NCBI GenBank assembly: GCA_958009085.1
Contig: OY253681.1
Location: 744,001 to 808,000 of the forward strand
Direction: 5' to 3'
Length of the DNA stretch: 64,000 nucleotides
DNA from: Protoeuglena noctilucae
Lineage: Eukaryota
Part shown: piece after piece, positions 8,001 to 63,679 of the stretch
Layout: each line of letters begins with the position of its first letter
Numbering within the stretch: the stretch's first letter is position 1
Translations under genes and position numbers: made by a program
Notes under the pieces: model-generated
What the model was told of the DNA's origin: nothing
What the model saw: the letters and a program-made list of their open reading frames with translations, nothing else
The model's database searches: none

Positions 8001-11000
8001 GTTAATAAGTGTCATTATTGCTTCGTTACCCCCGCAGTTGGCGGATGCGCATGCCGGCCGCCCCCAGGGCCACCGGGATGTGGCGAGGCGGGTGCAGGAG
8101 GAACATGAGAGGGATGTGGAGAGGCGGGGCAGGTGAGGGTGGGAACATGGGAGATGGGGAGAGGACGGGCAGGTGAGGGTGGGTGGATGAGATGGGGCAG
8201 GTGGGAGAGTGAGGGGTGTATGACGAGCCTCTTCACACCCACTGCACTGCACCTTTCCCCACCCCACTGCCACCCTCATCACCACCCCCACTGCCACCCC
8301 CACTACCGCCCATATCACCGTCCCCCATTACCTCCCACCCCCACCCCTTGCAGTGCCCTGGCCCTGCGCCTCCGTCGTGCCGAGCAGAGGCGCATGCAGC
8401 ATCTGCGACTGATACGCGAGAGGGCGGGGGCAGCCGCAGCCGGACCCTTATCCCCCGTCCGACGCTCTGCTTCCCTCAATGCAGCGTCCCTCACCGCATC
8501 CCTCACTGCAACAGCATCTCTCAACACAGCTGCTCCTCTCACCCCTGCCAGTCGCGGGGCTGGGGGGAACGGGGGTGGCAACGCGGTGCATGGGGCGCAT
8601 GGAGTTACTGCGATGGTTACGGGATCGAATCCGGGCAGCCTCTTTAGGGAAAGGGAGGCTGCCACTGGCGACATGAGTGCCCCTGCCCCCGCACCTACCC
8701 CGTCGTTTGCTGCTGGGTATGCCGCACCCAAGCGCCCCGCAGTGCAACGTATGACAAGCGACGAGGACCGTCTCTTTCAGAGCGCCACAAGCACTGCAGC
8801 TGACTACGGCTCAACAACCGGCATCGTGACCCCTCGCGCCACCGCCCCACGCAACCCCTGGCCCCTCGCTGCTCCCAGCGCCGCCCCCCGCACCCCCACT
8901 TGGCTTAATGCGGACAGCGCCGCCCCCGCTGCGCTCGCATGGCATAACGCCGACCCTTATGCTGTCCCCGCCGCCCCCCCGGGCACACCCTGGCAGTTCC
9001 CGACATCCAGGGCGGAGAATCTATCGAATAATATTATTCCATCGACTGATATTATTCCTTTGATTATTCCGTCAAGCGCTGCCCACCACCACCACCACCC
9101 CAGTGGGACTGGGGCAGGTGGCGCGCATAGCGGTGGGTGGGGCATGCATGCTATCCACGCAAGAGCCACCCCCACCCCAGCTCGTTATAACGCATGGGAT
9201 TCCGTCGATGTCTGGGATGATAGAGACGGTCGCGCGTCATCGAGCAATGCCGAGAGCCTCATGTGGGGATTGATGGGGGCGGCAGGGGTGGGCGGTGGTA
9301 CCAACGGCGGCGGCGGGAGTGTGATGGAGAGCGGCGATGGGGATGGGGTGGGGGACGCAGTTGACTCGTGGGGCTCGAATTCGAATTATTTCCATAACGG
9401 GGATAGCCCTGGCGTCAGGTTCGGGGCTCAGTCAGCCCATTACCAGGCGCAGCAAATGGGGTTGGGGGGGCCGGGGTGGCAAGGGGCGGTCACGCCAGCC
9501 CTGTCACCTAGTGTTCTTACTGGCGAGTTAACTAGCCGGGATATGGGGTCGAGGGGGCGATGGGCTTTGGTGGATAGTAGTGAGCGTGCACGGAGGGTGC
9601 GGGCAGGGCGGGGGGGTGGGTCGTGGGTGTGGGGTGGGGGTGAGGATGAGATGGGCGGAGGGGCGGAGATGTGGGGGGTTAGTAGCGGTGTTATAAAAGT
9701 TCCGGGAGGGCAAGCGGGCGCGTCCCTGAGTGTCGCGGAGTGGTGCGGGGGTGGCGGGGCGGGGGCGGGGGTGGGGGTGGGGCGTGAGGTGGTGGGGCGG
9801 GGGGCGGCGAGCGCGTTTGAGGGTGGGGGTGCGCGGGGGGGCAATGCGGGGAATCTGTTTGCATCGGCGTCGTTCAGAGAGCCCGTGACGCATCACAGGC
9901 TGGTTAGGGAGGCGGAAGGGAGAGCGGGTGCGGGTGGTGGTGGTGCGGGTGGGGGTGCGGGTGGTGGTGGTGGTGGTGGTGGTGGTGGTGTGGCATCACA
10001 GCCTGTGGTGTCTGTGGCTAATCGGAAAAAGAATCTGCGGAGACGGACGGCGAGGATTCAAAAGGAGATGGAGAGGTGAGGGGGTGGGGTTGGGTGGATG
10101 GTGGGGGGAGTGGGGGGGTTGGATGGGTGGTGTCGGACAAGTCATACCATTGTCTCTTCACCACCCCAATGCTTCCGCTCACACCACCTCCCCCACTGCA
10201 CCCACTCACCCACGCAACCCCACTCACACCACCCGCAGTCTCAGGCAAGCGTTGGATGCCATGCCGGATCCCCTGGGCTCTTCAGAAAGCCCCCCCGGCC
10301 ACCCTCACGTTTCTGGCACGGTCAGTGTCTCTGGCACCACTGACGTTTCTGGCGGACCCCCCCGCGCCAGTCTGCCGGTCACCGACAGTACCACTCGCAG
10401 TGCCCCATTGGTGCCACCAATGAACACCGCTACTGACACTAAGAGCATGGTCACTGGTAACAATGGGGTTCCTATCATCCCAAATGCCAGCCACAGCCAT
10501 AGCAGTGGCCCTATCACCCTGCCCCACCCACCCTCACCCACCAATCCCCACCCCGCACCCCCCACCGCCCCCCGCCACTCCCCGCCATCCTCGTCAGCTT
10601 TATTACACCCCTGGGCCTTCTTATGGCATGATTTGGAGTCATCATGGGCTATGCCTGCGATGTGGGGAAGCAGTGCGGGGGTAGGGGAGGGTGAGGGGAG
10701 GGGTGGGGTGGCGAGGCGGCGGCGGCGGCGGCGGGCGGGGGCAAAGGGGAGGGCTGGGGATGGGGCGGGGGGAGAGGAGGGGCAGGGAGGAGCAGAGGGG
10801 GGTGGTGTGGGTGCGGGTGCGGGGGCGGGGGCGGGGGCGGGTGCGGGTGCGCGTGCGGGTGCGCGTGCGGATATGAGGGGTGTTGGCAGTGGTGCGGGTG
10901 GGGGTACTGCAAGTGCGGGTCGCGCCGTTACAACTGCGGGTGTCGCCAAACCCCGCAGCAGAGCTAAGCCGGGACCGAGCGGGTCGTTGGCAAGAGCAGA

Positions 11001-11371: not shown

Positions 11372-11571
11372 NNNNNNNNNNNNNNNNNNNNNNNNNNNNN
11401 NNNNNNNNNNNNNNNNNNNNNNNNNNNNNNNNNNNNNNNNNNNNNNNNNNNNNNNNNNNNNNNNNNNNNNNNNNNNNNNNNNNNNNNNNNNNNNNNNNNN
11501 NNNNNNNNNNNNNNNNNNNNNNNNNNNNNNNNNNNNNNNNNNNNNNNNNNNNNNNNNNNNNNNNNNNNNNN
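11372..11571. other. Assembly gap (200 N)
   Basis: Run of exactly 200 N, probably a placeholder length. Confidence 0.99.
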
Positions 11572-11914: not shown

Positions 11915-14900
11915 TCACAGCTTGACCTTCCGGACGCGCACCGACTGCGGCGTCACCTCCACCAGCTCGTCCGAAACAATGTACTCGATCGCGTCATCCA
12001 GGGACATGTCTGGGCGGGAGGTGAAAGGGGAGAGGTATTAGGCAGTAATATTATTATTTATAATCTTCTTATACGTACTTGTACAATACATCATAATGGT
12101 AACATATCAATATTAGTCCATCATCAAACTATTATTATCATAATAATTAAAGTACATGCCATCAACAGGCCCCCCACTCGCCCTTGGGGGTGTCGAGCAC
12201 GACCGTGGCGTCCTTCCCCGCGGCGCGCATGTTGGTGAGCTGCTTGGCCTTGCATGCGTTTACGCGCAGGTCGCCGTAACGCTGGTGGATGCCGATGACC
12301 TGGGGGATGGGAGACGGGGGGGGGGATGAGATTTGAAGATTGTAGAATGAGGGATGAGATGACTCACTACCCGTCACCAGCGCATCGCTCCTCACTCCAC
12401 CAGCCCCTTCACTAACCCGCAACCACTCACTGCCAAACCAAACCCACGCCACCACTCACAGCCCCTCACCCCTCACCGACAACTCGCCACTACTCACTGC
12501 ACCCACTACACCCCACCCCCCATCCACCCCCCCATAATCTCTCACCTGCCCCTCGTAGATCTTGTCCCCCGGCCTGACGAACAGCACCCCCCTCTCCTGC
12601 ACGCTCTTCAAAGCATAGGCCGTGACCTGCCCCGTCTCGTGCGCGACCAACGACCCGTTCTCCCTCACATTCACGTCCCCACACCAGGGGCCGTAGTGGC
12701 TGAAGTTGGTGTTAAGCACAGCAGTGCCTTTCGTGGCCGTGAGCATGGCGTTCTTGAGGCCGAGCAGGCAGCGGGTGGGGATGGTGTAGGTGACCTGGGG
12801 GGTTGGGGGGGAGGGGGGGGGGTTAGAGGGTAAGTGGGGAGTGGGGGTGGTGGATGAGAGGGTAAGTAGTGGGGTGGGTGAGGACTGGGGATGGAGTAGG
12901 TGACCTTGGGGGGGAGGGGGGTGGGGGTGGTATAGGGTGGGGTGGGTTAGAGGTCGCAAGTAAGTAGAAAGAAGTGGGGTTGGCATGTTGTTGATAATAT
13001 ATATACCAACACATACCAGTATATCGTACATTACACGTACAATCCACCCTCACCCTCTGCGCCCCCTGCGCCCCCGCCACCATGTCCTTCATCTCCCCCT
13101 TCCTTCCCCCCATGAGCGTGGCCACCCCCCCCATGTACTCCTCCGGCACCTCAATCACCGCCTCGTCGTACGGCTCCAGCTTCTCGCCCTTGGGGCCCAA
13201 CTGGGGGGAAGAGCAAGGGGAGGGAAAGTTGAGGGTGAGTTACTATTACATAAATATCATAGTAACAGACTTATAAAAGTCTAGTTTTCATTTATTTACA
13301 AATACTGATTTTTATTTGTATTGAAATCCACACGTCTGCAACGACACCCCCACCACTCATCCCCCCCTTGCCTTGGTGATGACGGTGGGCGCACCCACAC
13401 TGAACTCGTACCCCTCCCTCCTCATGTTCTCAATCAAGATGCCCAAATGCAATGCCCCGCGACCGGAGACCACGAACTGGTCCGCCGTCTCCCCAGGCTC
13501 CACACGCAGCGCCAGGTTGCGCTCCAGCTCACGGTCCAGGCGGTCCTTCAGGTTGCGGGAGGTCTGGGGTTAAAAGGGGGATAGGTGTGAGTTATTAGTG
13601 ATTAGTATTCTATTGTAATATCCAAGAGGTCTTTCAGGTTGCGGGAGGTCTGGGTTGGGTGGGGTGGGTGTTGGGGTGTTTGTAAATGTGTAGTGATGAT
13701 AGTCTATATGAATTGTGTTATAATGCACAGGGTGTTGATGAAATTCCACATTACACATGTCTCGCACCACCAACCCCCCCCCGACCCCCACCCCTTCTCA
13801 CCACGAACTTCCCCTCCTGCCCCGCGAAGGGCGACGTATTGACGGCGAAGGTCATGCGCACCGTGGGCTCCTCCACTTTAATCGCGGGGAGCGGCATGGG
13901 GGACGCGGGGTCGACGATCGTGTCGCCGATCGTCACGTCACCCAGGCCGCAGATGGCGCAGATGTCGCCGGCGGATACGACGTCCACGGGGGACTTCTGG
14001 GGGAGTGGGGGGGGTGGGAGTGGGGTGTTATGACTGTATGTTATATTGTAGTATTACCATGAGTGTTACATTCTCAGATAGTAACTATAATGATACTATT
14101 ATTTACAGATCATTATATGTTTGTCATACTAACAAGCACTACCCTCTCCCTGACTCACCGAGAAGTTGTCGAACACGAAGAGCTCCTGGATGCGCGCCTT
14201 GCGGATGTCGGTGTCCGGCTGCATGACCCCCACGGTGGCGCCCTTGGTGACGGTGCCGCCCGTGACGCGGCCGATCGCGATGCGCCCCTTGTGGTCATCA
14301 TAGTCGATGTTCGTCACCAGCATCTGCAGGGGCTTGTCGATGTCCGCGCGGGGGGGGCTGACCTGGGGGGGAGATGGGGGGGGGGGGGGGGTGGGGGTGT
14401 CGGGAGGGGTGGGGGTGGGGTGGGTTGAGTGGATGCACTCGGTGGGGGTGGCGAGAGATGAGGACAACAGATATCACACGACACCAACACACAGCGGCTC
14501 GAGTGTCAGTCACTCATGTCAAACTCACAACCCATTCAACCACTTAACACTCGCCTTGTCCACGATGGTCTCGAACAGCGGCTCCAGCGTCTCCCGCATG
14601 TCCTCGGGGTCAAACCCAGCGATGCCCTGGAAGCCCGAGGCGTACACCACGGGGAAGTCGCACTGGTCGTCGTTGGCGCCCAGGTCCACGAACAGATCGA
14701 AGACCTGAGTGTGTAAAGGGAGGGGATGGGTGAGTGGTGGGTGAGTGGAGTCGTCACTGTCGTGCTACATCGCCACAACCTGTGGTATATCATCGTCTCT
14801 TATGATAGTGTTCACGCCCGCTGGTCGCGACTGCGCATTCATGAAATACACATGACCCATCTCCTGTTACCGCACAGACACAGTCACTCGCCTCGTTGAG

Positions 14901-16579: not shown

Positions 16580-19500
16580 ATGGGAATCCTGCGATGGCTG
16601 GCCGTGGCCCTGCTGGCGGGCGCGCTGCGGCCCGCGTTGGCACGGTGGACCTTGTCGACAGGCATCATCGCCCCCGACGCGCCCATATCGTGCAACCCGT
16701 ACAACTTCACGGACTTTAACTTCAATCCCCAACTCTCAAAGGCGAGCTGCCGCCGCAAGCGCGGCCCCTGCCCCGCCCGGGCGATGTCGCGCGGACTACC
16801 GCGGGCCAACATCCCGCAGCCCGCCTCTGCAGCGGGTCCGTGGGCCTCAAGTCAGGTCTGCTGGGCGTTTGCGTGCAAATGACTCACTAGCGGCTCGTTG
16901 CGCGCGTCAGGGTCCTTCGCGCGCCCCGCCTGCAGGGCCGCTTTCCCCCGCGCACGCTCGACTACACTCTCGTCGACCCGCCCGCTTCGACGCTCCAGTC
17001 CCCGCTGCCCTTTGACCAAGATGCGTCGATCGTCATGACCAGCGAGTGCGCCCTCGTCGTGGACACGCCGTCCGGCTCGGCCCACCCCTCGCTGTTTGCG
17101 CACTGGTGCGGCGGAGCGGCGGCAGGCTGGCGCGCTGTCGACAGCGCCATCCGCGCGGATCTTTGTCTGAGTCCATGGTTTCGGCCCTCGCATGGCTCGC
17201 ACGGCCGCGCGTCCGTCGCTCGGGCGCCCTGCGATTTGCGCATCTGCCCCGCCGCCCCCGCAGCCTCTCCGGCTTCTCCGACAACGTGTACGTGACCTTC
17301 GAGGAGATCAATCTCAACCAGTCCCGCGTGGAGAGCGTTTTCAACCTCAAACTGCAGACCACCGTCAACGCGTACCTAGCAGTGAGTTTTTGGGCCTCAA
17401 ACGCCGCGCCCGGCGCCCGGCGGGCGACCGCAGATGTGCTTTGCGTGACTATATATCGTCATCAACAAGAAGCGGTGAGCGCATTTAACGATCCTAGCGC
17501 GAATTTCGCCCCCGCAGGGCTATGTCGGGTCCACGCGCCTTTTGGCCCCCGACCGTCCCGGGATGGGCCAGCTGGCCGCGTACGCCGGCCGCGTGGTGTG
17601 GTCTCAGCTCACAGCCGATGGCGCCGACGCGTACGAGATCGGAGCGTACGATTTCTACGAGAGCCGCTTCATCAGCTCGTCCGCCTTCACCCCGCCCTCC
17701 GGCACGTCCTACACCTCCCCCACGGTGCGCGGACAGCTACGCGTGTTGTTCATACATATTACTCGCTTCGCTCTCATTTCCAGCTTCGAAGACGCCCCCC
17801 TCGCGTCGCCCGCGCCCCCAGGTGTGCGATGACTGGACAGCAATTGTCGCCTTCGACCACGCGACCGGTCTCTCGTCCATTCTGCTGTACGAGTACGACA
17901 CGGACTCCATCGAAGTGCTGTCCCGGGGCGTCCCGGGCCGCAACGCCTTAGCGGCGCGCCTGGCGCCCTTCGGCCGGTTGTGGCCGCTGGTGCACGTGAC
18001 AACGGCCGACATCCGGAGCGGGCCGACGACCACATCGAGCGCGTACTCGTCTCCGGGGGGTAAAATATCGTCCACGACCGACGCGGCGTCGACGGCGGGT
18101 TGGGGCGAGGCGGCGGTGGCGAGCGCGGATCCCGCGCGGCAGGGGTGCCGATTGGTGTGGGTAGAGACGGCAGCCCCGGTCAAGCTGGTTGGCGGGGCGA
18201 ACGTGGTGCCGGACACGCCTACCGGGGGCGTCACGGACGGGATCGTGCGGGTCATGGAGCTGCCCCAGCGCCGCATCCGCACGCCATCGACTCCGGCGGA
18301 GTGGACCGTGCACGCGCAGCCAGGCCCGGGGTTTGGGAAGGGGCTGGATGAGAAGGAGACGGAGATATGGTGAGGGAATGTGTGGGTGAACATTGGAAGG
18401 GGTGTGTGGTTGAATGGCGGTGGGGCGTGCCAGCGGGGGGAGCGGTCGGGATTGGTTAGTGCATACGGTGGGGTGCACTGTGGATGAAGCAGAGGGGGGA
18501 GCGGGGCGCGGGGGACGGCACGTGCCATGGAAGATAGGATGGGATTGCGGTGGAAAGGTCCTGCTCCTTTTCATGTCTTTGTCATTGGCACCCATACAGC
18601 CGCCCCTCGCCCCTTGCCCCAGGCGCCAGGCCGGCACGTCCACCACCGCCCTGACCTACGGCCTGCTGATGGACGTGGCGACGTCAGAGAACGAAATCTT
18701 CTTCCTAATCGCGGACGGGACGGAATCTGTTGCCCCTACGCGCTGAGTCGCCTCACGTCGAGTGGTCGACGACAGCGGGGCGGAGCTCCCCGCCACCGCG
18801 GTGCACTGGCCGCAGACCGACACGGCATCGCAGCTGACATTCGGGGAGGCGTCGGACCAGAACGTGGTGCTGCGTCAGGACCGGGGGGGCGGCGCATCGC
18901 TGACCGCGCTCTTCTCCGTCTCCCAGATCAACCGCGACACGCCCCCGCACTACACGCGCTACCCCTCCATGTGCACGCTCGTCGCGTCCGGCTCCCCCGG
19001 CACCCACGCGGGCGTCTTTCACGACATCGTGCTGTGGGCCGAGGGCGCCGGACGTGCTCTGCAGCTGATGGATGTCAACAAGGACAACGACGAGCTCATG
19101 GACGCGACCGACTGGTTCCCGCTCGATTTCCTCTACGTTTTCGACAACGACAACGACGGCATCGGCAACGCGGCCGACATAGTACCTGCCCACGGGTCGT
19201 GCGTGCAGTCGGACAAGCGCGGCGCGTGCTATAGCGACCTGATGGTCCTGTACCTCGTGTGGGCCGGCTTCGTCATCGTGCTCACGACATCCGTCTTTTT
19301 CATGGCGAGGTGGTACTACCGGCGCAAGCTCATCATACGCGCGGCGGCCAAGGCGCCCCTGGCTAGCTCCAATGGGGTCGCGTCGGGGGGGTCGGGGAGA
19401 ATGGGGCAGGTGAGGGGGGGTGCAGGGTGCGGGTGGTGGTATGGGTGAGGGTAGCAGCATGGGTGAGGGTAGCAGTGTGGGTGTAGGGTGCGGGTGGTTG

Positions 19501-22500
19501 TGTGGGTGGGAGTGAGGGTGAGGGTGGTGGCGGTGTGGGTGAGGGTGGCAGCATGGGTGAGGGTGGTTGTGCGGGTGAGGGTGGCGGTGCGAGTGGGGGT
19601 AGCAGTGTGGGTGAGGGTAGCGGTGTGGGTGAGGTGGCAGTGCAGGTGTCCGCGAATTTCATCACCTTGCCTGACCTTCCAACATCCATGAATCTCACAT
19701 TCTCGTCTCCTCCGCCCGCAGCGCGTCACGGAGGGCTCCGCGCACGGCGCAGGGGCGTCCGCACGGTCCATCACCGCAGCGGTCCTCTCCTCGGGTCGCC
19801 GCGGCAGCGACGGGGGCGGAACCGCTTCGCGCGGATCGCTTATGGGAGACTGGGACGTCGAGTCTATGACCGGCGCGGACGCAAAGACGGAGGCGATCGT
19901 AGCGGATGCTGCCGGAATCAGCGACGTCCGCGCCGTCGAGGGCCCCGACCCCGGACTGCGCCGGCTGGTCGTGCGGACGCAGCTGGTGTCTCTCGTGGGA
20001 CAAATCTTCATGCTTCTCCTCGCGATCGCGTCGCTCCTGACCGCGATCATCCCGTACTTGAGTCTGACGCCCACCTCGCTGCGACTGCTCGAGCGTTTCT
20101 CGTGGTTCGATTTCTTCACCGCTTACATATTCCTCGTCGACATCGTCACGCGATTCGTCACGCGCAACCCGGAGCACACGCCCAACTTCCGGTCGTTCCT
20201 GCGCAAGAACTGGTCGGACTTCCTGGCGCTCTTCACGGACATCCCCGGCCTCACCACCGCCGGAGCGCTGCACTTCCTGGTGTTCACGCGGTTCCGGCAT
20301 CTCTTCAAGATCTTTCGGTGAGGGAGGGGGACTGCTTGCTGCAGCTAGCACGTACTGTTGTCGCTCAACCCTCGCCCTATACTCACCGCCATTGTCATGG
20401 CACATTCTCCCCCACGTGATCCCACCACCCCGCCGCGCACCCTCACAACCCATTACACCCCATGACAACCCTCCCCGCCACCCCACCACCGCCACGTGCC
20501 CTCACAGCCCATTTTACCCCATGATGACCCCCCTACTTCCCAACTTCCTCCCTCACCTCCTTTCACCCCCGCAGCCTCGCGCGCATCCTGAAGATTTTCC
20601 GTGTGGTCCGCGCCTACCGAAATATGACCCGCACCACGGCCGTGCTGGACTTCATGATCAACAAGCCCCACATGTTCATGGGAGTTCTGCTGGTCCTGCT
20701 CATCCTGGCCTTCTCGGCAGGCACTAAGATATTCGAGCAGGGCAGTAACCCCGTGTGGTCGTCCTACGCCAACAACATATGGTTCAGCATAGTCACGGTG
20801 ACGACGATTGGCTACGGTGACATGGCGCCACGCACGATTGGCGCGCGGGTGATGACGGTGCTGATGATGGCGCTGGGGATCGGGCTGGTGGGGCTGCTGA
20901 CGGCCACGGTCATTCGCGGGGTGATGGTGGGGAAGCAGGGGTCCAAGCTGAGCAAGAGGAAGAGGGAGCACCGAAACCGGCTCGAGATGCTCAAGGGCAC
21001 GTGAGTGACTGATGTCTGTGTTATGTCAGTATATCATAGTATAGTTGGTAGTACCAACTAATGCCAATTTCAGCCACCAACCTTCCTCCGACATGAGCAT
21101 GCTGCTGTATATCATTATTCTATACCATGATATTGTCATCGTTCCTCTCTCTCTCAGTTCGGCGCGCATGTGCATGGCCTTCAACCCGCTGGTGGTGTCG
21201 TTCGGGGAGCACCTGGAGCGTTCGATGGGCAAGAAGCTGAGCATGGTGCAGCTGGCCATGCAGCACAGCAGCGCCCAGTACAACATGGTGGCGGGACTGG
21301 ACGAGGACGTCCTGCTGCCCATGGAAGAACTCATGGCTCAGGCGAGGAAGGCGGTGTTGAGTGTGATATATTTCAATAGTTGTATTATATAATATTATAT
21401 TATCTATCGTGCTCGTTCATCGCAGTCATCGACCAAGTTCTCTGCGGCGGGGGAGACGCGAGAGCTGACGGAGGCAGAGGTGAGGGGGGTGGGGTAGTCG
21501 GCGGGGTAGAGGTGACAAGGTGAAGAGGTAAGGGTGGTATAGGCATGCTCATGATGTTGAAGACGACGTGTACCCAACCTAATCCATTTCCCCTTTGCCT
21601 CCAGCAGCCCCAGCACCGCCGCACCCTCACCATCCCACTCCACCCTCACCTCATCCCCTCACCACATCCACTCCCCCTTCCCCCACCACGCAGCGCCAGC
21701 ACAGCTGCACCCTCACCACCCCATCCTCACCTCATCCTCACCTCATTCACTCTCCCTTCCCCCACCCCCCCCAGCGCCAGCACCGCCGCACCCTCACCAG
21801 CCAGCGCCGGGCGCTGCAGACGTTGGTGGAGCGAAGCATGTCCACGGCCATCGTGTCACCGACGGAGAAGCTCAATTACGTGCTGCGGTTCTCCAAGCTG
21901 GACTCCAAGTCCGAGGGAGGCGAGTGATAAGTGGTGTGGATGGGATGGGTGGGATTTGGACGGGTTGCGGTTCGGTGGGTTGGCAGTGAGCGAGGCGGGG
22001 GTGGGAGGGAGGAGGGGCAGGTGTTTCATTGCTGCTGTGGATTGCTGCCGAGGGATGCGTAGAGATATGCTCAGCCGGCGGGTGCTCAACAAGTACTTAG
22101 CCCATCGCAATACACCTCGCTCCTCCAGCACCAGCACTGTAGCACCGTCCCTGATCCCCTCTCCCCCTCCCTCTCCCCTCCCGCAGTGCGCAACTTCGAC
22201 TCGCTCCTCACCGAGCTCCAAGAGGCCATGTTCCCGGCTGTAAAGCCCGAGGACACGTTCGTGGGGCGCGTGCTGGCCCTCTCTCTCGCCATGGACGACG
22301 CCGGGGGCCTCCCGCCGGGCGTGGAGGCCGACCTCACCGACCCGCTGGACCGGAGACTGGTGCGGGTGGAAGAGATCCTCAAGCGACACCAAATCCCCGG
22401 CCGCGACAACTACCACGAGCTGCTTCTGGAGTTGACCACCCTGGCGGTACTCTACGACCGCGTGCAGAACGCGCAGTACTGCCTGCAGGCCGTGCAGTTC

Positions 22501-24457: not shown

Positions 24458-27400
24458 CTAGTCATTCCCACTCTGCCCCCGCGCCCGTTTAGTCCCCGAA
24501 GCACGTTTCCTACCCGCGCCCTGCTTCCTACCCGCACCCTCCCCATTATCAGCCCCATCACCCCTTGCGACATCGCTACCCCCAACACCGCTCCCACCAC
24601 AGCCACCATTTGCACAAGTGTCGCCAAAGCCGAATCGAAAGACATCTGCACCTCCCTCCCCCTCTTCGGAACCCTTTGCTATGCCACTGGCACTCCCACC
24701 GCCTCCCCCAGATTCAAACCCAAACCTGAAGCCACCCCCACCGCCCTCACCAAGCCCCTCCCTGTCCCTCGCCCCTTCGCCACCCTCCCTCCCCACATCC
24801 CCCGCCCCCACCCCTCCCTCTCCCTCTCCCTCACCACCCCGCCCCGCCCCTCCCTCCCCACTCCCACCACCGCCCCTCTCACCCCCGCCATTCGCCCTCG
24901 CTCCCACCCCACTCGCACCACCCCCAGCAAAGAGAGACGCGAGCTTCGGCGCTCTCCCTCTCACTTCCTCCGCCCTCCTCTCCCTCACTGCCGCGTTCCT
25001 TGCCCAAGCATCTGGGTCACGCTCATTGATGGCTGACATCAACCAGTCGCAGAGCAAGGGGCGGTCCGACTGCAAGAAACGGACGGGAGGATATAATATG
25101 GGTTTGATTGATGCGCTTGTGCAATGGGAGAGCTTTGGGTTCGAAAGGTGTGAATCGCAAACACGCTGCCACTCCCGCCCCTCGCGCTCGCTGCCACCCT
25201 CACTGCCACCCCCACTGCTACCCTCACTGTCACCCTCTTATTACCACCATCGCTGCCACCCCCACTGCCACCCTTATCGCCGCCCCCACTGCCACCCCCA
25301 CTGCTACCCTCACTGCCACCCTCACCTCTCCATACTAACACCACAGCATACCACACAGCATGCCTTCACCTCCGGGCACCCCGAAACGAGATCCGGGTCC
25401 CTGGTCTCGAGCACTCGCATCACACGATCGAGATTGGCAGAAGAAACGAAGTTCTGGGTCACGGCGATGGAGGTGCCGGGGTCGATGTTCATGACGCAGT
25501 GCCACCAGCCGGACGGGACGAAGACGACATCACCGGGGGAGCAGATGCACTGTGGAGAGAGTGAGGGTGAGGGTGAGGGTGAGGGTGAAAGGGAGGGTTA
25601 GAGTGGTGATAAGGGTGGCAATGTGGGTGAGGGTGATTGCAAGGGTGGCAGTAAAGGTGACAGCAAGGACGAGTGTGCAAGTAGAGCAGTGTTTGAACCA
25701 CATCACGCGAAGCAATCAACAGATTGTCGCTACTAAGCACCATGCATTCGCAAAGTAGCTCGCCTCGAATGGCCTCACGGGTCCCTTCTTCGTTTCCACA
25801 TAGAACTTGTCGAACCACTCCATGAGGCTCAGAGGGGTGGCCACCGTGGCACCGCCCTCGCTCACGCGCACGCCCGGGGGGGTGTGGTTCGGAGGGTAGA
25901 GCACCCACTTCTTCCGGCCGCGGACCTGTGTTGTTGTAGGAGATGAGCGGATGGCACCGGCGATGGTGATGGGTTGCATCTATCTGTCCATGTATGTCAA
26001 CCTCTCACCGGCGCGTTCCACGCAACGTGCTATCATCGCATAGCACAATCTCGCTCCCTCACCGGTGCGTTCCATGCGCTGGTGCCGTTGGGATCGACGT
26101 GGAAGGAGGACCCACTGCGCTGCCCGCCCACGATGAGCCATCGGTAATCGGGGCGACGGTCGCTCAGCAGAGAGAAGAGGTCCTCGGAAAATACACGGGG
26201 GACCTGGACGAAGTGACGAGGATCACATTGCATGAGGAATAGAACCCTAGCACCACATCATACGGCAGCGGTGGTAACAACGGCAGTCGCGGCAAAGATT
26301 GCATCGCTGCGCGACATCCACGAGGTGCAGAGGACCTGGTTGCATGCAATAACAGTTTCGTTATACAATTCCCACTCTCCCCGCACCTGGAAGTCAGCAG
26401 CCAGCTCGGGCGCCGTCTCTGCGAACGTCTTGTCGAACAAGTAGAGCGGCTGCTCGTCCCGGTTCTGCGCGCGACGCCGCAATGCGTTTGTTTATCATAA
26501 CACTTCGATTATGCGCGAGATGCATGGCGCAGCGAAGGCTTATTGAGGTGTCAGGCTATTGATGCTCGCCTCTTGCAGGTACCGCTTGTACTCGTCCCAG
26601 GTGGTCGGGGCGTTGGACACGATGACGGGCTTGCCCCGGAAGGCCTTTCCGAGGTAGCCGTCCGTCCACTTGCGCAGGGCAGGCCAATCGCGGGTGGCGC
26701 CCTGGGTGCACGTGCCGGGGTGCATGCGTGTCATTTCCAGGCAAAATGGTAAAGCTACCAAATCCAAGAGCTTCTCAGAAACCCATGTGCAAGAAGGCAT
26801 TGATCATGCACGCCCCGTTCATCTATGCCACGCCGCAAAGTCCAAACTCGCCTCGATGACGACTGGCCGGTTGCGGGCCTCAAATCGCTCGCGGAAGCCC
26901 TCCACGTCCTTTGCCGCGATGCGGGGCATGTTATCGACATCCAGCCACGCCGGGTCAATCTGCGGGAAGGGCTCTGCCGATGTTAGGATGGCGCTGACGC
27001 AAAGTGCAGCTGCACGCGTTTTGATGCGATGCGCCCCTCGCCTCCCTGTGAGCGTACATCCAGGGCTCGTAAAGAACGTCGGAGAAGACGCTGCGCAGGA
27101 CGCGGGGCCTGCAAAACGGGAAAACGCAGCGCACATGAGATCTGAGTGTGCCCTGAGGTACAAAGGGCGGATTCAGTCGCCGGGCCCCAGAAAGCGAGCC
27201 CTGCTTATAAATGGGGTGCCAGTAAGATTGACGGCACCTCATGCAGAGAATTGCACTTTCAGAAGCGCAGGCAGTCACCGCAGCGCCTGGTCGGAGGAGC
27301 GGGGACGGAACTGGGACGGGTTGGACCACCGCGCATACGTCTCGCGCCATGAGAATCGGAATTGGAGGACACCCTCGCTCGCACGAAGCGCCAGCGCGCG

Positions 27401-33300: not shown

Positions 33301-33428
33301 TGCGATTGCGACTGGCCGTGACATACCGTGCGCACGTCAAGCGTGCGGCGAGGGAGTGGGTGGTGCTGGGGCGGAGGGCGCTGGCTCACGTGATGGAGAG
33401 GGCGAGGGGTGGGGGTGAGGGGAAGTGA
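30400..33428 (+). CDS. SET-domain protein lysine methyltransferase (Rubisco LSMT/SETD3-like)
   Basis: ERVALAMYLAMHR|SLGAKSPLYDYLRALP...PLMWSEQELEEIR|GTPL, LLWAHAMVASRA, ALVPGLDFANH and GDEIRIDYGDRGQEAMLFAYG. The N-terminus looks like an organellar transit peptide. Confidence 0.85.
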
Positions 33429-52200: not shown

Positions 52201-55200
52201 AGCACTGTTGCAACGCACAGCCCACCCCACACTCTCACCCAACGACCACTCCCCGACCCACACCCACCCCACTCCCCCACCCACACCCACACCCCCTCTC
52301 CCCCCCTCGCAGCCCCATCCCCACGATCACAAGGGCATACCCGTTACATCGAATACCGTAACGACCACTGACCCCCGCGTTTCTGGCAACGGGGCCCCGA
52401 CGGACGACGGGGACGGCGCGACCACCGCCGTTCTGGCAACGTCGGGACTGACAGCGTCGTCAGAAACGAGCCACGCGCCATCGGTGGCGAATGCGAGGGG
52501 TGGCGGTGGGGGTGGGGGTGGGGGGCAAAGGCAGGGGCGGCGGGGGCGGCGGCGGGGGGGTGGGGCAGGAGAGGGGGCGGGGGTTGGCGGGGAGGGCGGG
52601 GGTGGCGAGGGGGATGGGTCGGGTGAGCTGGGCTGCGATGGGATGATGGGTGGTGATAAGTGTGTTGATGGTAAGTGACGAAGAGTAATGAGTGATAGTC
52701 GTTGATAGGTGGCATTGGTGCTCTTTGATCCCCATCGCATATTCTGTTTCTCCGTAGCCATGTTACATGGATCATATCAAACTCTACCCCCCCTCATATC
52801 TCCCTCATCTGTCCCTATCACCCCCAGGCCAGGAGGCGGACGCCGAGGACCTGGCCCCCACCTCCCACGCATCGCCCGGCATTGGCAGTGTTACTTATAC
52901 TAATAATAACAGTAACAGTAACACCACGGCATCGATGAACGCAAACACGTCATCGGTGAATACAAATACAATTACAAATACAATTAACAAGAACCGGGTG
53001 TTTTTATCGAGGGCGCCATCGATGGGGATCTGGGGAAAGCGGAGGAGGGGAGGGGGCGTAGTAAAGGGGTGCCGAGGAGGGTGGGGAGAGTGAGGGGGAG
53101 CAGTGGGGCGGAGGGGGGAGAGGGAGNNNNNNNNNNNNNNNNNNNNNNNNNNNNNNNNNNNNNNNNNNNNNNNNNNNNNNNNNNNNNNNNNNNNNNNNNN
53201 NNNNNNNNNNNNNNNNNNNNNNNNNNNNNNNNNNNNNNNNNNNNNNNNNNNNNNNNNNNNNNNNNNNNNNNNNNNNNNNNNNNNNNNNNNNNNNNNNNNN
53301 NNNNNNNNNNNNNNNNNNNNNNNNNNCTCAATATTTATACTAAATACTTTTCATACTAATTATCACCATTACTGTTCCCGCTGCCCGCAGTCCCCCGGCC
53401 AGCGCGCGCAGGAGCGTGACGAGTGCTGTCACGTGCCTCGCCACGGCGACGGGACTCTCTACGAGCATCTCGCCGACAGAGATTCCCTGTGGCTCGACTT
53501 CGCGGCTGACACGGGGGACGGGGGGGATGCCACATACACGGTGGCGAGGTGCCTTGCACAGAGGGCACTGCAGGTGAGGCAGTGTGGCGGTCACTGAGGG
53601 TGATATTACTGTCATCGGTAGTTTCAAAGCTGTTACATGTACTGCCATGGTCGTTGCCACCCCCACTGCCACCCTTACAACCACCCCCACTGCCAACCCC
53701 ACTGCCACCCCTTCCCCAACACAGTCATCATCACAATGCCTCATCCCTTTCAACTCCCATCTCTCTCCCCTCCTCAGGTCTCCGACCCCAATCGCCTCGT
53801 CACTTAAACTACCACCCCTATTCAATCAAACAACATATTGACATGGTTATCATCTTCATTCCTCACTTCCCATATCTCTCTCCCCTTCTCAGGTCTCCGA
53901 TCCCAATCGCCTCCTCACCCCCCACCTTAATATAGTCAAATAAGATAATTACAGTAGTAATTATACCATTTTACATTTCCCCTTCCAGGTCTCTGACCCC
54001 AATCGCCTGGTCACCCCCCACCCCGCCGGCGCCACCCCCGCCACCTCCCGCCACGCCCCCGGTCATCTGGCATCCGATGAGAACGCAGACGCAAGAATAT
54101 ACGAATCCCTCGATTCCGCGACCGATGATTCGATCGATGGAGACATGCACACATCGAGGGGGGGGGGTGGTAACATGGGTGGTGGTATTGGTGGTAACAC
54201 TATGGGTGCCAATACTACTACTACTAATACCATCAATGGTGGCTCGACTATGGGTGATGGTAACGGTATCACTGGTGGCAATCGGGGGCCCTGGACGCCG
54301 TCGCGGGCGCTAAGGAGGCTGTTTGTGGGGGCGAGGGGGGGGCAACAACAGCAAGGGGGGGGGTGGGGAAGGTGAGAGGGGCGGGTGTGGGGTGGGGGGT
54401 GAAATGAGGAATGTTGGAAAGTGATGGGGTTTGTATGAGCAGTGAGACGTTGCGTACTGTATTTAGCGAATCATCTAATTTTACTACTTTACTTCTTTAC
54501 TATCTTAATATCCTCTCACATTTCGCAGTCCCACGTGTGGGAGAGCACCCGGGGCGTTCTGTTGGATGGCGCTCAGCGCATCCGACGCCTGGCGCGGCAC
54601 CTGGGGAAACGTGCTATGCACCGAAACGCGCCCCCCGCTTTCGTGCTGCCGAGGGCGGACGTGCTCGTGCTGGGGGGGGACCTGGCGTACCCCAACCCGT
54701 CCGAGGCGAGTGATGGGGGGTGGGGTGTTGTACTGTAATGCAATGGTTATACTATACAGGTAATCAAGAGTACATATGCGTAAAAATGTTACACTGAAGT
54801 ATAAATTGAAAAATATTTATTTATTATTTTATTGTAACTGCCACTAACTCACCCTGTATATCTCCTAACCCACCCCCGCAGTTCACGTACGAGCACCGTC
54901 TGTTTGGCCCCTTCCAGGACGCCCTCCCTCCCCCGCCCCACTACCACCCCTCGCGGCTGGTGGTGCAGAAGCCAGACCTGGCCGATACGGCCCAACCACC
55001 CGCATATGTACCTGCAACTGCAAATGCATTCACAACATCAGCACCCGCACCCGCACCTGCATTTACCACCGCACCCGCGCCTGCCATGCACCCCAGCCAA
55101 TCAGTGGCAGTGGGTGGTGGCGATGCGATGCCATCTCAATCCCAGCAGCAGCAGCGGGGGCGATCTGCGGTGGAGGCGAATCACGAGTCATCAGTGAGGG

Positions 55201-58200
55201 AGGTGAGCGATGGGGTGTGTGGGTTGGTGTGCGGGGGGGTGTGGGGTGTGTTGGTGGGTGTGGTCACAACCATAATGACTACGGATTATAACTGTCTATC
55301 AAAACTGTATACTTGATTTCGCAATTATCACCCCACCCACCCCTCGTCTCCTACCCCCACCCCCACGCACCCAGGACCCCCCCGCCCCCGGCGCCCGCCG
55401 CCAGCTCTGGGACTCTGCCAAAAACGCAGATTACAACGCTGTCAGAAACGCAGCGACGCCGCCCCTTGCGCCCCGCCACGCTAACGGCCGCCAAAGCACC
55501 GACGGTGATAGCGGGGGGCGATCGATGCGCAAGGAGGGGCAGCGGGCGGGGAGTGGGGTGGATGTGAATGGGCAGGGAGAGGGGGAGAGGGGGGAGAGGA
55601 AGGTGGATGGGGTGGATGGGGCGGTAGGTGTGGTGGGAGATGGGGTGGGTGTGGGTGGGGCGGTGCGGAGTGCCCCGGGTCCCGATGTGAAAGGCAATGG
55701 TGGTGGGGTGGAAGCAAGTGGGGGAGAGAGGAATGGGGAGAGGGATGGGGAGGGCGATGAGGGGTTGCGGTGAGTGGGAGTGGTGGCAGTGATAAGGAGC
55801 TGCAGTGTTGCGATGGAAATGTGGTCGCAGTTTGTTGCCATTGCTAAGAAATGCAAAATGACGATCCTCACCACTCCCCCCCCCCCCCACCTCTCACTGC
55901 CATACTCACCCTCACCCCACCCCACCCTCACCCCACCCCCCCAGTCAGCTCCGCGACTACCCCGGCCCCCAATGCTTCGCCATCCCCGGCAACCACGACT
56001 GGATCGATGGACTGGACACCTTTCAGAGGCATTTCCAGCATAAGGGGTGGCTGGGGGGGTGGCTGCTTCCCCAGAGCAACTCCTACTTTGCGCTGCGGCT
56101 GCCCCACGGCTGGTGGCTGCTGGCGCTGGACCTGGTGCTGGTGGGCGACATCGGTGAGTGTTAATTACAAGAAATGGTATTGTTAGCTTTCATCGATGTG
56201 TCCTTGTTTAATCAAAATATATATAATGCAATTATTGCAATAATAATAGTATTTATAGTAGAACTGATTAGTATTGCTCATCATATCCTTTCCAATATTA
56301 ACACCCTCCCCCACCGCAGACATGCTGCAGTACCAGTACTTTGCGTCCCTGGCAGAGCACCGCATGTCCCCCACCGACCGCGCCGTCATCGTCACCCACG
56401 AGCCCATGTGGCTCATCAACTGGTGAGGGATGCGTGATGTGTGATAATACGTATTGATTAGTCGATATTCAATGGATGGGAGAGCGTAGTTCACTCCATC
56501 CTCACCAACACCCACCCTTGTCACTCCCTCAAACTGTCACCCCCGCTATTCAAATATCTATACTTGTTATTCAAATTCCCACCCCACCCATCTCTTCCCA
56601 GGTTCTGGGGCTCCCGCCACTCCGCCCCCAACCTGCGCCAGTTGGTGCGGGGTCCGTTGCGCGGCAGAGTGGCGATGCACCTGGCAGGAGACATCCATTT
56701 CTACATGCGACACTCGCTATCACCCCCCGAAGCTGCGAGAGCGGCTGCGAGGGGGGCGGGGGTGGCGGGTGGGGGTGCGGGGGCGGGGGCGGGGGTGGGT
56801 GCAGGGTTGTTTCCTACACTGGCGCAGGGAGTGGGGAGGAGCGAGGTGAGGATATGAGATGGGGGTGTGGTGAGGGAGGGTGTTTGAATGGTGGGGCGGG
56901 GGTGGGTGCAGGGTTGTTTCCTACACTGGCGCAGGGAGTGGGGAGGAGCGAGGTGAGGATATGAGATGGGGGTGTGGTGAGGGAGGGTGTTTGAATGTAG
57001 GCGAGCGTGTGAGGTGGTTGGAGTGGTCGTGCGGTTGATGGTGGGTTGTGATGGGTGCGACCGTCGTTACCGCTGCCACCCCCACTGCCACCTTCACTGC
57101 CACCCTCATCACCACCCCCACTGCCACCTTCACTGCCACCCTCATCACCACCCCCACTGCTACCCTCATTACCACGCTCACCCCCACCCCCACTACCTCC
57201 CTCACTACCCCCACTCCCCCCACCCCCCCAGTCCCCCCTGTACCTGGGCCGCGAGTGGCAGCCGGGCGACCCCCTCCACCTCATTACGTCTGGCTCTGGC
57301 GGTGCGTTCCTGCACCCCACCCACCTCTTCCACAAGGCACGGTTCCCAGGGACCGTGGACCTCAGCGTCATGGGGGCCGTGAGGCAGAAGGTGAGAGTTG
57401 ATGTAGATGTGGATGTGGATGTGGGATGGGCTGATTGGAAGTATATATCTACTGTGCCGTTGTTTACAATTAACATGAGTAGCTTGTCTGCTTGAATTGC
57501 TTCTGTTCACCCACCCTCTCACCCCACGCACTAACCCCCACCCTCACTCACCTCTACCTCACCCACCACCCCCCCCCACTCACCCCCCCCAGGACTCCCG
57601 CCCCGCCCCCACCCACACCTCTGCCTCTGTTAATAACAATGTGGATTTCGTGGAGGTGGGGCAGGGCCAGGCGGAGGGCGTCTACACGATGCGGGCGTGC
57701 TTCCCGGACCCCGCCACATCGCAGAAGCTGGCCTGGATCAACCTGCTGCAGGTGAGGGGATGGATTTGAATGATGGGAGTTGCTGGAGTGGTGGACTTGA
57801 ATGCGATGCTGCCGGTGGCTACCCACTCACGCACTCACTCACTCATTCACTCAACCACACAACCAGATCGACGTCATGGGCGCAGCACTGTACTAAAACA
57901 GTAACTACTACACTAGTTAACACTTCAGTACTCACTCACTCACTCCCCCACCCCCCTTCAGCTCCGCACCCACAACCAGATCGACGTCATGGGCGCTGCC
58001 CTGTACTTCCTCCTGGTCGTCTCCGTGCTGCCCAGATGCGGCATGGCCAACGTGCTGCAGTCCCCGGGGCCCCTCGCCGCCGCCGGGGCGTTCCTGGCGC
58101 AGGTGGGGGAGGCCCTGCAGGACCTGTGTGCCAGAGGGGTGGTGTCGCTGGTGACGCTGGTGGTGCTGGCGGTGGGGATGGTGAAGTTCGCGCAGGGAGG

Positions 58201-59941
58201 GGGCGTGGGGGCGCTGTCGGCCCAGGCGGGGAGGCGTGTGCCCCACGCCACCCCACCGCTGCGACTGGGGGGGGCGGCGGCGGTGGTGGGAGTGGGGCTG
58301 CAGCACGCCGCCACGCATTTGGTCACTGCCGTCGTGCTGGCGTGTCTGCTGGAGCTGGGGATCGAGCTGTGGTGAGTGGCTGTGTGGAGAGTGAGAGGGT
58401 GTGATTGACTGGTAATTGACTGGTGAGGGAGTGTTTGGCAGTGTCACCACTGTGAAAGTCTGGTGCTTACCGCTCGCACACCCGGCCCACACCCTCGTTT
58501 GCACACATTCCCCACCCTCGCCCCAGTCAACCCCCCCGCACACCTCTCATCTCCTCAACTACCCCTTCATCCCACCTCACCCCACTCACCCCCACCAGCC
58601 CCTCCCCTCTCCCCCCCCCAGCATCCGCTACGAGGGCCTGGGCGCCGACGGCTACCACAGCCTCTTCAAGTGGTACCAGAGATTCGAGTCGGAGAGATTC
58701 TCCGACCCCTACGGCGTCCGAGCGATGCTCTCCAAGGCATCCCTGGGGCTCTACCCGGCCGCGCTGCAGTGGACGATGGCCGTGTTCGACGTGCCAGAAA
58801 CTGTCGCGGTCGCACGCGGGCACATCTGCACCGCGGGCGCCGCCTCGGTGTCGCGGATGGAGTTACTGGGATTCTACGGCGGGTCCCTCGCCTACCTGTG
58901 GCTGCTGGCGGTGCCCGCGGGGTCGTTTGTGCTGGGGGTGTACCTGTGGCTGACGGTGGGGTTCTTGGGTGTTCACTACGACGAGGGTTTCTCCAGTTTG
59001 CGCATTCGGGACTTCAAGGGGTTCCTGAGGCTGCACATCAGCGAGGAGGGGGAGATGGATGTGAGGGGGGGGTGTGTTATTGTGTGTGTTGTGTTGGGGG
59101 GTGGGGTAAGGTGGGTGTAGGGTGCTGTGAGAAGGGTGGGGTGAGGTGACGAGAGAGGGAGGTGAGGTGTTGATAGCAGTTGTCGTCTCGAGCAGTCTCA
59201 CTGTTATCACCCTCACATCACATCACCAATCGTCATCCATTCCCTCTCACTCCTCCGTCCCACCATCTCAGGTGTTCAGCCTGGGCGTCTGGCGCGTCCC
59301 CACCAAGTGACATCAGTCTCATCTATCCATCTATACCCACATCTACATCTTTCAAAGAAACACTCACTCCCTCGCTCATCTCAGGTGTTCGGCCTGGGCG
59401 TGCGTCCCACCAAATGACATCTCTCACAACACTCACTCCCTCGCTCTTCCCAGGTGTTCAGCCTGGGCGTCAGGCGCGTCCCCACCAAGTGGCGGGAGGA
59501 CCCCCGGTGGGCGGGGGACCGGGGGGCGGGGCACCCCTCTGCCTGGGGTGGGGGAGGGAACACCGTGGCGTCGCATGAAGCGGCGCACCCCAGCAGGTGA
59601 GAGAGAACGTGATGGGATGGGATTGGATGGGTTGGCATTGTGCTAAGCCATACACTCACCTTATACGGGAACGTGCTTTGGCAGCGCTGAGCTGCGTGGT
59701 GAAAGGCGCCGAAGGTGGCGTCGTGTCAAATAGCGCATTCCACTCAACCCATACCGACCATCCACCTCTCTCCCTATCTCTTTCTCTCTATCCGTGCACA
59801 CGCAGGTGGGTGCCCGTTCGCGGCGTCAGTCGCATGGCGCAGCTGCGGGGGAAGCGCAGGGGGCGGCTGGAGGTGGACCCGATCCAAGTGGAGGTGGTGG
59901 ACTACTTCAAGGTGCCCAAGGGAGCACTGCCACTGGAGTGA
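49296..59941 (+). CDS. Multi-pass membrane calcineurin-like metallophosphoesterase (plant At4g11800/At4g23000-like)
   Basis: N-terminal TMs (LNYTTLYIAWLLAAVLYHVPAL), LWLDFAADTGDGGDATYTVAR, LVLGGDLAYPNPSE|FTYEHRLF, CFAIPGNHDWIDGL, VIVTHEP, LAGDIHFYMRH, SGSGGAFLHPTH and HYDEGFSSLRIRDFKGFLRLHI. The gene spans the second N gap. Confidence 0.88.
53127..53326. other. Assembly gap (200 N)
   Basis: Run of exactly 200 N inside the phosphoesterase gene. Confidence 0.99.
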
Positions 59942-60185
59942 GGCGGTGTGGTGGTGGGGATGGATGGGGCGAGATGGTGCAGCGGGTGGGGAAGGGGTTG
60001 AGATGGCTGGAGTGGAAAGGGTCGGGGAGCTGGATGGGAGGAAGTGGCTGTACATGTAGTGCCCTGCTGGCGTTGTGCGGCAAAGCTTGCCTGGTGTGTG
60101 TTCGTGGATTGAAGAGTGAGATAGGCCATCCATGATCAGAAAGTGCCGTCGGCAGTGCCTGCTGTTGTGGATGTCTGGTAGAGCA

Positions 60186-60495
60186 AAGGCAAACGGTCGC
60201 CTGGCTGTGGATAACAAAAGCGCTCCTTCTCACAGCCATAGGGACCCGTTGAACCGCACCGCGGCCCGCATCGCAACGCCACCAACCATCGACAAGAGCC
60301 ACCGAGCATCCGCAACCGCACCACCCTCACACGCACGCGCGCACGCACACACGTTCCATGTGCCGTGACGTGCCCTCTCAAGCGCAAAGCACGCGCGCCC
60401 GGCGTCATCCCTCTCCGCGCAAGACAAACCCCCGCTCATCCGCGCCACCCGCGCAGCGCAGCGCTGCGTCAGTGGCGCGAGAGAGAGCGCTCCCT
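60186..60495. repeat. Diverged direct repeat, copy 1 (SUMO 3' end/UTR relic)
   Basis: Collinear with 62967-63266, e.g. CTCCTTCTCACAGCCATAGGG, GTTGAACCGCACCGCGG and GCGCAAAGCACGCGCGCCCGGCGTCATCCCTCTCCGCGCA. Confidence 0.9.
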
Positions 60496-62966: not shown

Positions 62967-63266
62967 AAGCAAGCGGTCGCCCAACTGTGCAGAGCAAACT
63001 CCTTCTCACAGCCATAGGGGTCCGTTGAACCGCACCGCGGCTCGCATCGCAACGCCACCAACCATTAACAAAGAGCCACCGAACAACCGCAACCGCACCA
63101 GCCTTACACGCACGCACACAGGTTCCATGTGCCGTGCATGTGCCGTGCCCTCTCGAGCGCAAAGCACGCGCGCCCGGCGTCATCCCTCTCCGCGCATTCG
63201 AAACCCCGCTCATCTGCGCCGCCCGCGCAGCGCGGCGCTGCATCAGTGGCTTGAGAGAGCGCCCCC
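62967..63266. repeat. Diverged direct repeat, copy 2 (SUMO C-terminus and 3' UTR)
   Basis: Collinear with 60186-60495 and contains the SUMO GG-ALSSH-stop codons on the minus strand. Confidence 0.9.
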
Positions 63267-63581: not shown

Positions 63582-63679
63582 AGCCGCGTGAGGTCCCTGC
63601 GCCACGAATCGCATAGTCCAGACGGTAGGTAGCCGCGTGAGGTCCCTGCGCCACGAATCGCAGAGTCCAGACGGTAGGT
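63582..63679. repeat. 49-bp tandem duplication upstream of the SUMO exon (probably intronic)
   Basis: AGCCGCGTGAGGTCCCTGCGCCACGAATCGCA(T/G)AGTCCAGACGGTAGGT occurs twice, with one mismatch. Confidence 0.92.

Follow-up and report, generated by a model that had tools for sequence, protein, structure and literature searches.

The locus considered here raises the question of how a single intron comes to hold three near-identical copies of its own 3′ splice site together with the start of the following exon, and of how only the last of these leads into coding sequence. We examined it in the context of the window, i.e., the whole 64-kb stretch of DNA that was analysed, which has a GC content of 63.7% and is dense in short introns.

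A decayed array of three acceptor copies

The three copies, which the original prediction had placed at 59269, 59382 and 59451, are recovered by a repeat finder as 59266–59309, 59379–59422 and 59448–59491, with spacings of 113 and 69 nt, and each consists of intron tail, CAG and exon start. A search of the whole 64-kb window with the 20-mer CAGGTGTTCAGCCTGGGCGT, allowing up to 3 mismatches, returns matches only at these three positions (3 observed as compared to 0.01 expected), and none of 100 shuffles reached three. The pattern CAGGTGTTC(A/G)GCCTGGGCGT occurs three times with 0–1 mismatch, the pseudo-sites being near-identical to the authentic site and having comparable tails. Copy 1 differs from copy 3 at a single position (40/41 identical), and copy 2 shows an A>G change, one deletion and a G>A change. 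All three copies read CAG|GTGTTC; thus, AG|GT lies inside the duplicated unit.

When cut at the recurring ACATC, units 1–3 align across both the intron tail and the exon head, with the last unit entering the exon. The array is hence a series of head-to-tail units on the forward strand, the terminal unit of which spans the intron/exon boundary. Unit 1 (59215–59309) comprises a tail, a ghost acceptor CAG at 59269–59271 and a ghost exon head at 59272–59309, with a TGA at 59308–59310 at the unit joint. Unit 2 (59310–59416) begins with ACATC and contains an extra CATCTA-like expansion, a tail and a ghost acceptor CAG at 59382–59384; it ends in the exon head decayed by the above-described A>G change, deletion and G>A change (59385–59416), again with a TGA (59415–59417) at the unit joint. 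Unit 3 (59417–59491) begins with ACATC and continues through a tail and the working acceptor CAG at 59451–59453 into the first 38 nt of the real exon. The units differ in length (about 95, 107 and 75 nt), and Tandem Repeats Finder did not call the 59215–59491 array. The two upstream copies, hereinafter ghosts 1 and 2, have both flanks in common (catctcag...tgacatc).

With the upstream exon spliced on in frame, ghost 1 translates as VFSLGVWRVPTK-stop, with the stop after 12 codons, and ghost 2 reads VFGLGVRPTK-stop, with the stop after 10 codons, while copy 3 remains open for 48 residues. In-frame translation thus bears out the claim that the ghosts read VFSLGVWRVPTK-TGA and VFGLGVRPTK-TGA and that only the last copy reads on. 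That each ghost ends in an in-frame stop is likewise true, but this carries less weight than it was given: judged from the sequence, the TGA of both ghosts is formed by the unit joint AAGTG|ACATC and has one origin, not two. Accordingly, the two stops are not independent evidence for design.

Recovery of the array from metagenomic and metatranscriptomic contigs

The array was compared with four separately assembled short-read data sets, two of DNA and two of RNA, from four samples and two studies. Among the marine metagenomes, a 2831-nt contig of X5 spans 57580–60410 and a 520-nt contig of X7 spans 59050–59569, each with 0 differences to the window and with the same copy number, though these are two contigs only, possibly from one strain, which may not be independent of the sample behind the window's assembly. 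Metatranscriptome contigs of X8 (59125–59483) and X11 (59125–59434) include both ghosts, also with 0 differences. The longest exact run common to two copies is 21 nt, which is shorter than an assembly word of 31 (an assumed value); hence, such contigs can resolve the copies and would neither collapse nor multiply them. As the four data sets reproduce the array letter for letter, assembly stutter is unlikely. Stutter over a single genomic copy was the outcome that the original prediction had itself named as speaking against it; what we found instead is that the two DNA and two RNA contig sets, all built from short reads, retain the array. In X5 and X7, the many short joints and loose ends of G-rich or C-rich sequence represent repeat noise, as do uncovered parts, and they were excluded.

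The host gene and its working acceptor

The host gene lies on the forward strand from ~49.8 kb to 59941 and codes for a long phosphoesterase-like membrane protein, a label based on its GNHDW motif and on the name of one homologue. Its closest relatives are green-algal proteins from Chlorella ohadii, Micractinium and Gonium, with 52–61% identity over the upstream exon, and one homologue is named a calcineurin-like phosphoesterase by its source. Pfam recovered no family in four single-exon translations of the host gene.

The upstream exon (58622–59060, forward strand) ends in ...GAG ATG GAT. RNA contigs of X8 (record 26) and X11 (record 4) span 58621–59060 and join to 59454, and tblastn with the green-algal proteins P0003, P0005, P0006 and P0009 aligns 58623–59060 at 53–57% identity. 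The same homologues read ...EMD|VFSLGV unbroken over the joint, resuming at 59451–59597. Together, the RNA joint 59060→59454, present in one contig each of X8 and X11, and the homologues reading across it identify copy 3 as the working acceptor and 59061–59453 as the intron (393 nt, GT..AG, with the two ghost acceptors inside it). The real exon, 59454–59596, begins VFSLGVRRVPTKWREDPRW... and is followed by a probable intron at 59597–59805, placed by frame, consensus and homologue alignment, with no RNA joint among those listed, and by the last exon at 59806–59941.

No joint into either ghost (59272 or 59385) is present among the 15/22 joints listed, in which 59060→59454 is the only one found here, with the proviso that contigs drop rare and NMD-degraded forms, so that ghost use would be invisible in them if rare. 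In the unspliced RNA contigs, the sequence continues uninterrupted across both ghost sites. A protein scan of the metagenome contigs for the DNA of relatives found none, and a 20-mer scan of the same contigs yielded 34 loci, all of them single chance matches of 20–28 nt in sequences otherwise unlike the locus. Rfam gave no match in the 59061–59453 intron, and an intron hairpin between a G-rich 5′ arm and a C-rich 3′ arm, folded for one intron, is not convincing (z-scores of −1.2 and −1.8). Elsewhere in the window, weak Rfam matches to miRNA precursors fall far below the gathering scores and reflect possible hairpins.

Recurrence of junction copies and intron length

According to the original prediction, four or more genes of the window show the same pattern, and this is confirmed by a self-comparison of the window, inspection of each match and homologue alignment. 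On the acceptor side, 41 nt are copied with 100% identity at 6922/7016 (6922–7056) around a 53-nt AT-rich spacer, which is itself a 25-nt tandem repeat. Two introns of a minus-strand gene for a TypA/BipA-like GTPase contain copies at 12776/12886 (12776–12927) and 13535/13621 (13535–13654), the exon starts in these cases being set by homologue alignment. A true whole-unit tandem array with a junction is found on the forward strand at 21605–21799, with three copies at a period of 81–84 (2.3 copies at period 81). Its units (21600–21800) consist of an acceptor, 25 nt of exon head and a C-rich tail, and the last copy runs on as exon (…QRQHRRTLTSQRRALQTLVERSM…).

The array's own host gene has a second acceptor-side stack of three copies, CAG|GTCTCCGACCCCAATCGCC..., at 53759/53874/53978 (53759–54022, forward strand). 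In this stack, the third copy alone opens a long frame, of 128 codons as compared to 9 and 16, and the spacers are AT-rich, both beginning with TTAA. Further examples comprise a copy of an exon head at 57858/57971, which covers positions 10–46 of the exon without the acceptor, and an acceptor-side pair at 11156/11279 that adjoins a 200-N assembly gap (11372–11571); the window has one other gap of 200 N, at 53127–53326, inside the phosphoesterase-like gene. All acceptor-type ghosts inspected retain their AG, which is what young neutral copies would be expected to show.

Donor-side copies are also present. One is a whole-unit tandem duplication at 56786/56893 (56786–56997; period 107, 2.0 copies, 100% identical), which is beyond checking by short-word contigs as a perfect 107-nt repeat. 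Copied in it are the donor GT with the last 60 nt of the exon before it and 45 nt of the intron after it. On its left side, the RNA joint 56950→57230 has 56 nt, which lie entirely inside the 100%-identical repeat; the joint is thus compatible with either donor. Other donor-side copies occur at 7621/7715, at 8100/8142 and probably at 33380/33436.

To place these cases against a background we used 21 introns of two genes, as set by RNA joints, homologue alignments and consensus. The first 25 nt of the exon have a match of at least 19/25 in their own upstream intron in 4 of the 21 cases, as against 3 of 420 comparisons with other introns; at a threshold of at least 20/25 the counts are 3/21 and 0/420 (Fisher p about 1e-4). 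Thus, the comparison that the original prediction proposed across the genome, carried out here on 21 introns of two genes with other introns as the control, shows the expected enrichment. The last 25 nt of the upstream exon are copied in its own intron once in 21, as compared to 0/420. Overall, about a quarter of the introns examined in the two genes carry junction copies. The copy-bearing introns (n = 6) have a median length of 322 nt, as compared to 179 nt in the other 15 (Mann–Whitney p = 0.0008). When the added periods are subtracted, five of the six fall to 149–279 nt, near or within the usual range, and the sixth (57752) is left with only 97 nt.

Thus, the idea of repeated local duplications that make introns longer at their junctions fits the alignment of units over tail and head, the enrichment in the own intron and the greater length of copy-bearing introns, but a preference for junctions over intron interiors is not established. 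The interiors are rich in short-period repeats, and in this one window there is one exact 49-nt tandem copy off any recognised junction. This duplication, at 63582–63679, lies in a minus-strand gene upstream of the acceptor of a SUMO-like exon and represents an intron-interior or UTR example.

Other repeats and introns of the window

Apart from the local copies, the self-comparison of the window returns only WD40 coding repeats, the CACTGCCACCC minisatellite, one 265-nt pair and one short low-complexity G-rich pair (GGGGC/GGGTGC; 10809/56767). Beyond the minisatellite, the window contains no dispersed intron family, and an introner or transposon-derived intron was rejected on this ground. The WD40-repeat gene, with coding repeats of about 126 nt, occupies 61.2–62.9 kb, and the 265-nt direct repeat (87% identical) lies on both sides of it, at 60223–60485 and 62999–63259. 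The CACTGCCACCC(T/C)CA minisatellite is found in introns of several genes (8262–8319, 19409–19642 in reverse, 25187–25326, 53651–53711 and 57071–57206). Its metagenome word depth is about 250–276 as compared to about 12 nearby, indicating that it is either highly repeated in the genome or common to other organisms.

GC-AG introns appear to be common: 5 of the 21 supported introns begin with GC (GCGAGT or GCAAGG), namely that at 54706–54881, which has RNA joints in two runs, and those with minus-strand starts at 14891, 14554, 13371 and 12181. Introns (55550–55945, 59061–59270 and others) tend to be rich in G towards the 5′ end, in AT in the core and in C towards the 3′ end; as a result, the GC skew flips inside each of them.

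A proposed origin by junction-spanning duplication

We posit that the copies are best understood as tolerated local duplications that span splice junctions and lengthen introns, and that the array is a decayed three-unit tandem array of this kind; we put the probability of this reading at about 0.7. A unit of roughly 75–107 nt, made up of the last 35–65 nt of the intron and the first 38–41 nt of the exon, would have been duplicated twice across the junction. Such an acceptor-spanning duplication would be tolerated because the mRNA is unchanged as long as the copy adjoining the intact exon is spliced. The two extra periods would have lengthened the intron, which is 393 nt now and would be about 211 nt without them. 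The look-alike acceptors left upstream would then decay, with small slippage events added, and the TGA at the joint AAGTG|ACATC would be a by-product, inherited when the unit was copied again. The mutational route may have been replication slippage or break repair, either of which could produce short tandem duplications, sometimes with filler, and we infer that the ghosts are neutral. With regard to site choice, each unit might bring its own branch-site region, and use of the branch site nearest the exon and then of the first AG would lead to copy 3. Ghost-spliced RNA, if any, would have an early stop and could be degraded.

Certain observations go against so plain a history. The spacers at several other loci are AT-rich (GC 0.18–0.50) and not clearly homologous to the predicted flank (z mostly <2), and the 41-nt copy at 6922/7016, though 100% identical, has dissimilar surroundings. 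Simple duplication followed by decay does not fit there; such loci call in addition for inserted filler, for gene conversion or for selection acting on the ghosts. A purely neutral reading has also to contend with the 59061–59453 intron itself, where, alone among the introns assessable in the gene, the unspliced contigs are about as deep as the exon contigs.

Unspliced RNA and alternative explanations

The unspliced contig of X8 has a depth of 26.3 as compared to 19.2 for the spliced exon contigs, and that of X11 has 16.6 as compared to 15.2, contig depth being a weak measure of retention. In five other introns of the host gene, bins that fall entirely or largely inside the intron have depths of 0–2.7, and among the introns assessable in this gene, only 59061–59453 shows such exon-like unspliced depth. 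The X8 unspliced contig stops 30 nt inside the exon, at the kind of point where a spliced and an unspliced path would be expected to come together. The second three-acceptor intron of the host gene (53574–53988) has no cover in X11, though its upstream exon is covered. The unspliced signal may represent slow splicing or retention of the 59061–59453 intron, possibly through competing sites, or retention may simply follow from its length, which is among the greatest of the introns, and from its G-rich start. A regular-expression scan finds one G-quadruplex-type motif in this intron, at 59096–59122 on the forward strand in its G-rich 5′ part and ~150 nt from ghost 1. The unspliced contigs of X8 and X11 both start exactly at 59125, just 3′ of this motif, which may be due to reverse-transcriptase stalling or to a coverage gap in G-rich sequence.

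A stronger version of the duplication reading would hold that splice junctions attract short duplications or preferentially retain them, as a main route of intron lengthening and splice-site turnover, and that the stacked acceptors brake splicing. We treat this as a minor possibility.

A different proposal is that the ghosts are maintained for a function, either as decoys that slow or stall splicing and so promote intron retention or detention, or as poison 3′ splice sites that lead to NMD and thereby adjust how much full-length protein is made. A stop would follow within 10–25 codons if either ghost were used or the intron were retained; the unspliced cover of 59125–59483 in X8 and 59125–59434 in X11 and the ghost junction at 6922/7016, far better kept than its surroundings, agree with such a role. 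Yet the joints listed include none into 59272 or 59385, the intron contigs run unbroken through both sites, ghost 2 is visibly decayed, and the other three-acceptor intron lacks intron cover in X11. Given also that contig depth is a poor measure and that the great length and G-rich start of the intron might themselves cause its retention, we consider maintenance for function unlikely. For poison acceptors coupled to NMD, the second alternative of the original prediction, the contigs offer no support, nor do they refute it, since rare and degraded forms drop out of them.

Alternatively, the ghosts might be separate templated insertions made during double-strand-break repair by polymerase-theta-type end joining, each with ~40 nt copied upstream from the nearby junction, at breaks that intron ends rich in G or C and able to form G4 would perhaps promote. 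The accessible part of one study (PMC8654963) describes G4-induced breaks repaired with templated insertions and tandem duplications from aborted polymerase-theta repair, as well as more complex patchwork insertions in plants. The arrangement of copy, unrelated AT-rich spacer and copy at the other loci fits this scheme, the C-rich tails offer microhomology, and G4-type motifs are present in intron ends. In the present array, however, the homology reaches into the tails and all units begin with ACATC, for which whole-unit duplication is simpler; moreover, the sole G4-type motif of the intron lies well away from ghost 1, and the repair pathway would have to be assumed for this organism. Separate templated insertions are thus quite unlikely as the source of these ghosts.

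A third proposal takes the ghosts for recursive splice sites, whereby the upstream exon would be joined to a ghost and the regenerated GT of AG|GT would then act as a donor, giving the same final mRNA. CAG|GT is indeed found in all three copies and in the ghosts at 53759 and 12886. However, the regenerated donor would be GTGTTC, whereas G(T/C)GAG is the donor of 20 of the 21 supported introns and GCAAG that of the remaining one; the real exon begins with the same GTGTTC yet stays in the mRNA; other ghosts read AG|GC, AG|AC or AG|TA; and no intermediate is seen in the contigs. We therefore regard recursive splicing as very improbable. Least credible is that the genome has one copy and the array is an artefact of assembly, for even though the evidence comes from short-read contigs, with X5 and X7 perhaps not independent of the assembly source, the array is reproduced with 0 differences in four separately assembled sets, two of DNA and two of RNA, and its copies differ enough to make words of 31 unique.

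Comparison with known systems

The proposed junction-spanning duplication has its closest precedent in human F7. According to the accessible text of PMC1557585, intron 7 of this gene has a 37-bp VNTR, the first unit of which lies across the boundary of exon 7 and intron 7, and the identical donor pseudo-sites downstream were shown by experiment to be silent. As far as that text goes, the two cases have in common a head-to-tail repeat with a terminal unit over an exon/intron boundary, several look-alike splice sites in the intron, and the appearance in the mRNA of the site adjoining the intact exon, which in the algal case is read from contigs where rare forms are not visible. On the same basis they differ in that the F7 repeat is donor-side, has identical units and is a single human locus, whereas the algal array is acceptor-side, decayed and of unequal units, and is accompanied by copies at many junctions in several genes. 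Single junction-spanning repeats are thus known already, with F7 as the model; what is described here is the acceptor-side form, and it is recurrent. The literature that we searched holds no account of recurrent junction-spanning copies in an alga.

A second parallel is intron gain by tandem duplication of an exon segment with an AG|GT proto-splice site, as set out in the portions of PMC3265369 and PMC2891723 available. To the extent that these describe it, such gain resembles the present case in that splice signals are copied by a short local duplication, splicing removes one copy so that the mRNA is unchanged, and AG|GT lies in the unit; it differs in that the algal duplication lies across a junction that was already there and makes the intron at that junction longer. 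We considered and rejected the birth of the 59061–59453 intron from a duplication of AG|GT: 208 nt separate its 5′ splice site (59061) from ghost 1 downstream, and the intron start carries no exon-head copy. The tail of the upstream exon has no copy in the intron either (best 14/25). Thus, with neither an exon-head copy at 59061 nor a copy of the upstream tail, the intron was not born from the array's duplication.

In NMD-coupled alternative 3′ splice sites and poison exons, use of the site brings an early stop. Use of an upstream acceptor would do the same here; however, the stop in this case appears to be a by-product of the unit joint, and ghost use is putative. Introner elements of marine algae shape many introns and have direct repeats at the intron ends; unlike these, the repeats described here are local copies of each gene's own junction.

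Implications

The weight of these observations lies mainly in the frequency of the pattern and in the intron-specific unspliced RNA. At a practical level, stacked acceptors are an annotation hazard, as gene finders may take the wrong one and thereby predict truncated proteins. If short duplications were indeed targeted to junctions and acted as a brake on splicing, such introns would amount to dozens of natural experiments on how the spliceosome chooses among identical 3′ splice sites. If the pattern is genome-wide, it would offer a natural series of identical competing 3′ splice sites of various ages and spacings for studies of splice-site choice, and it would point to simple means by which introns can grow and splice sites be replaced with no change to the mRNA.
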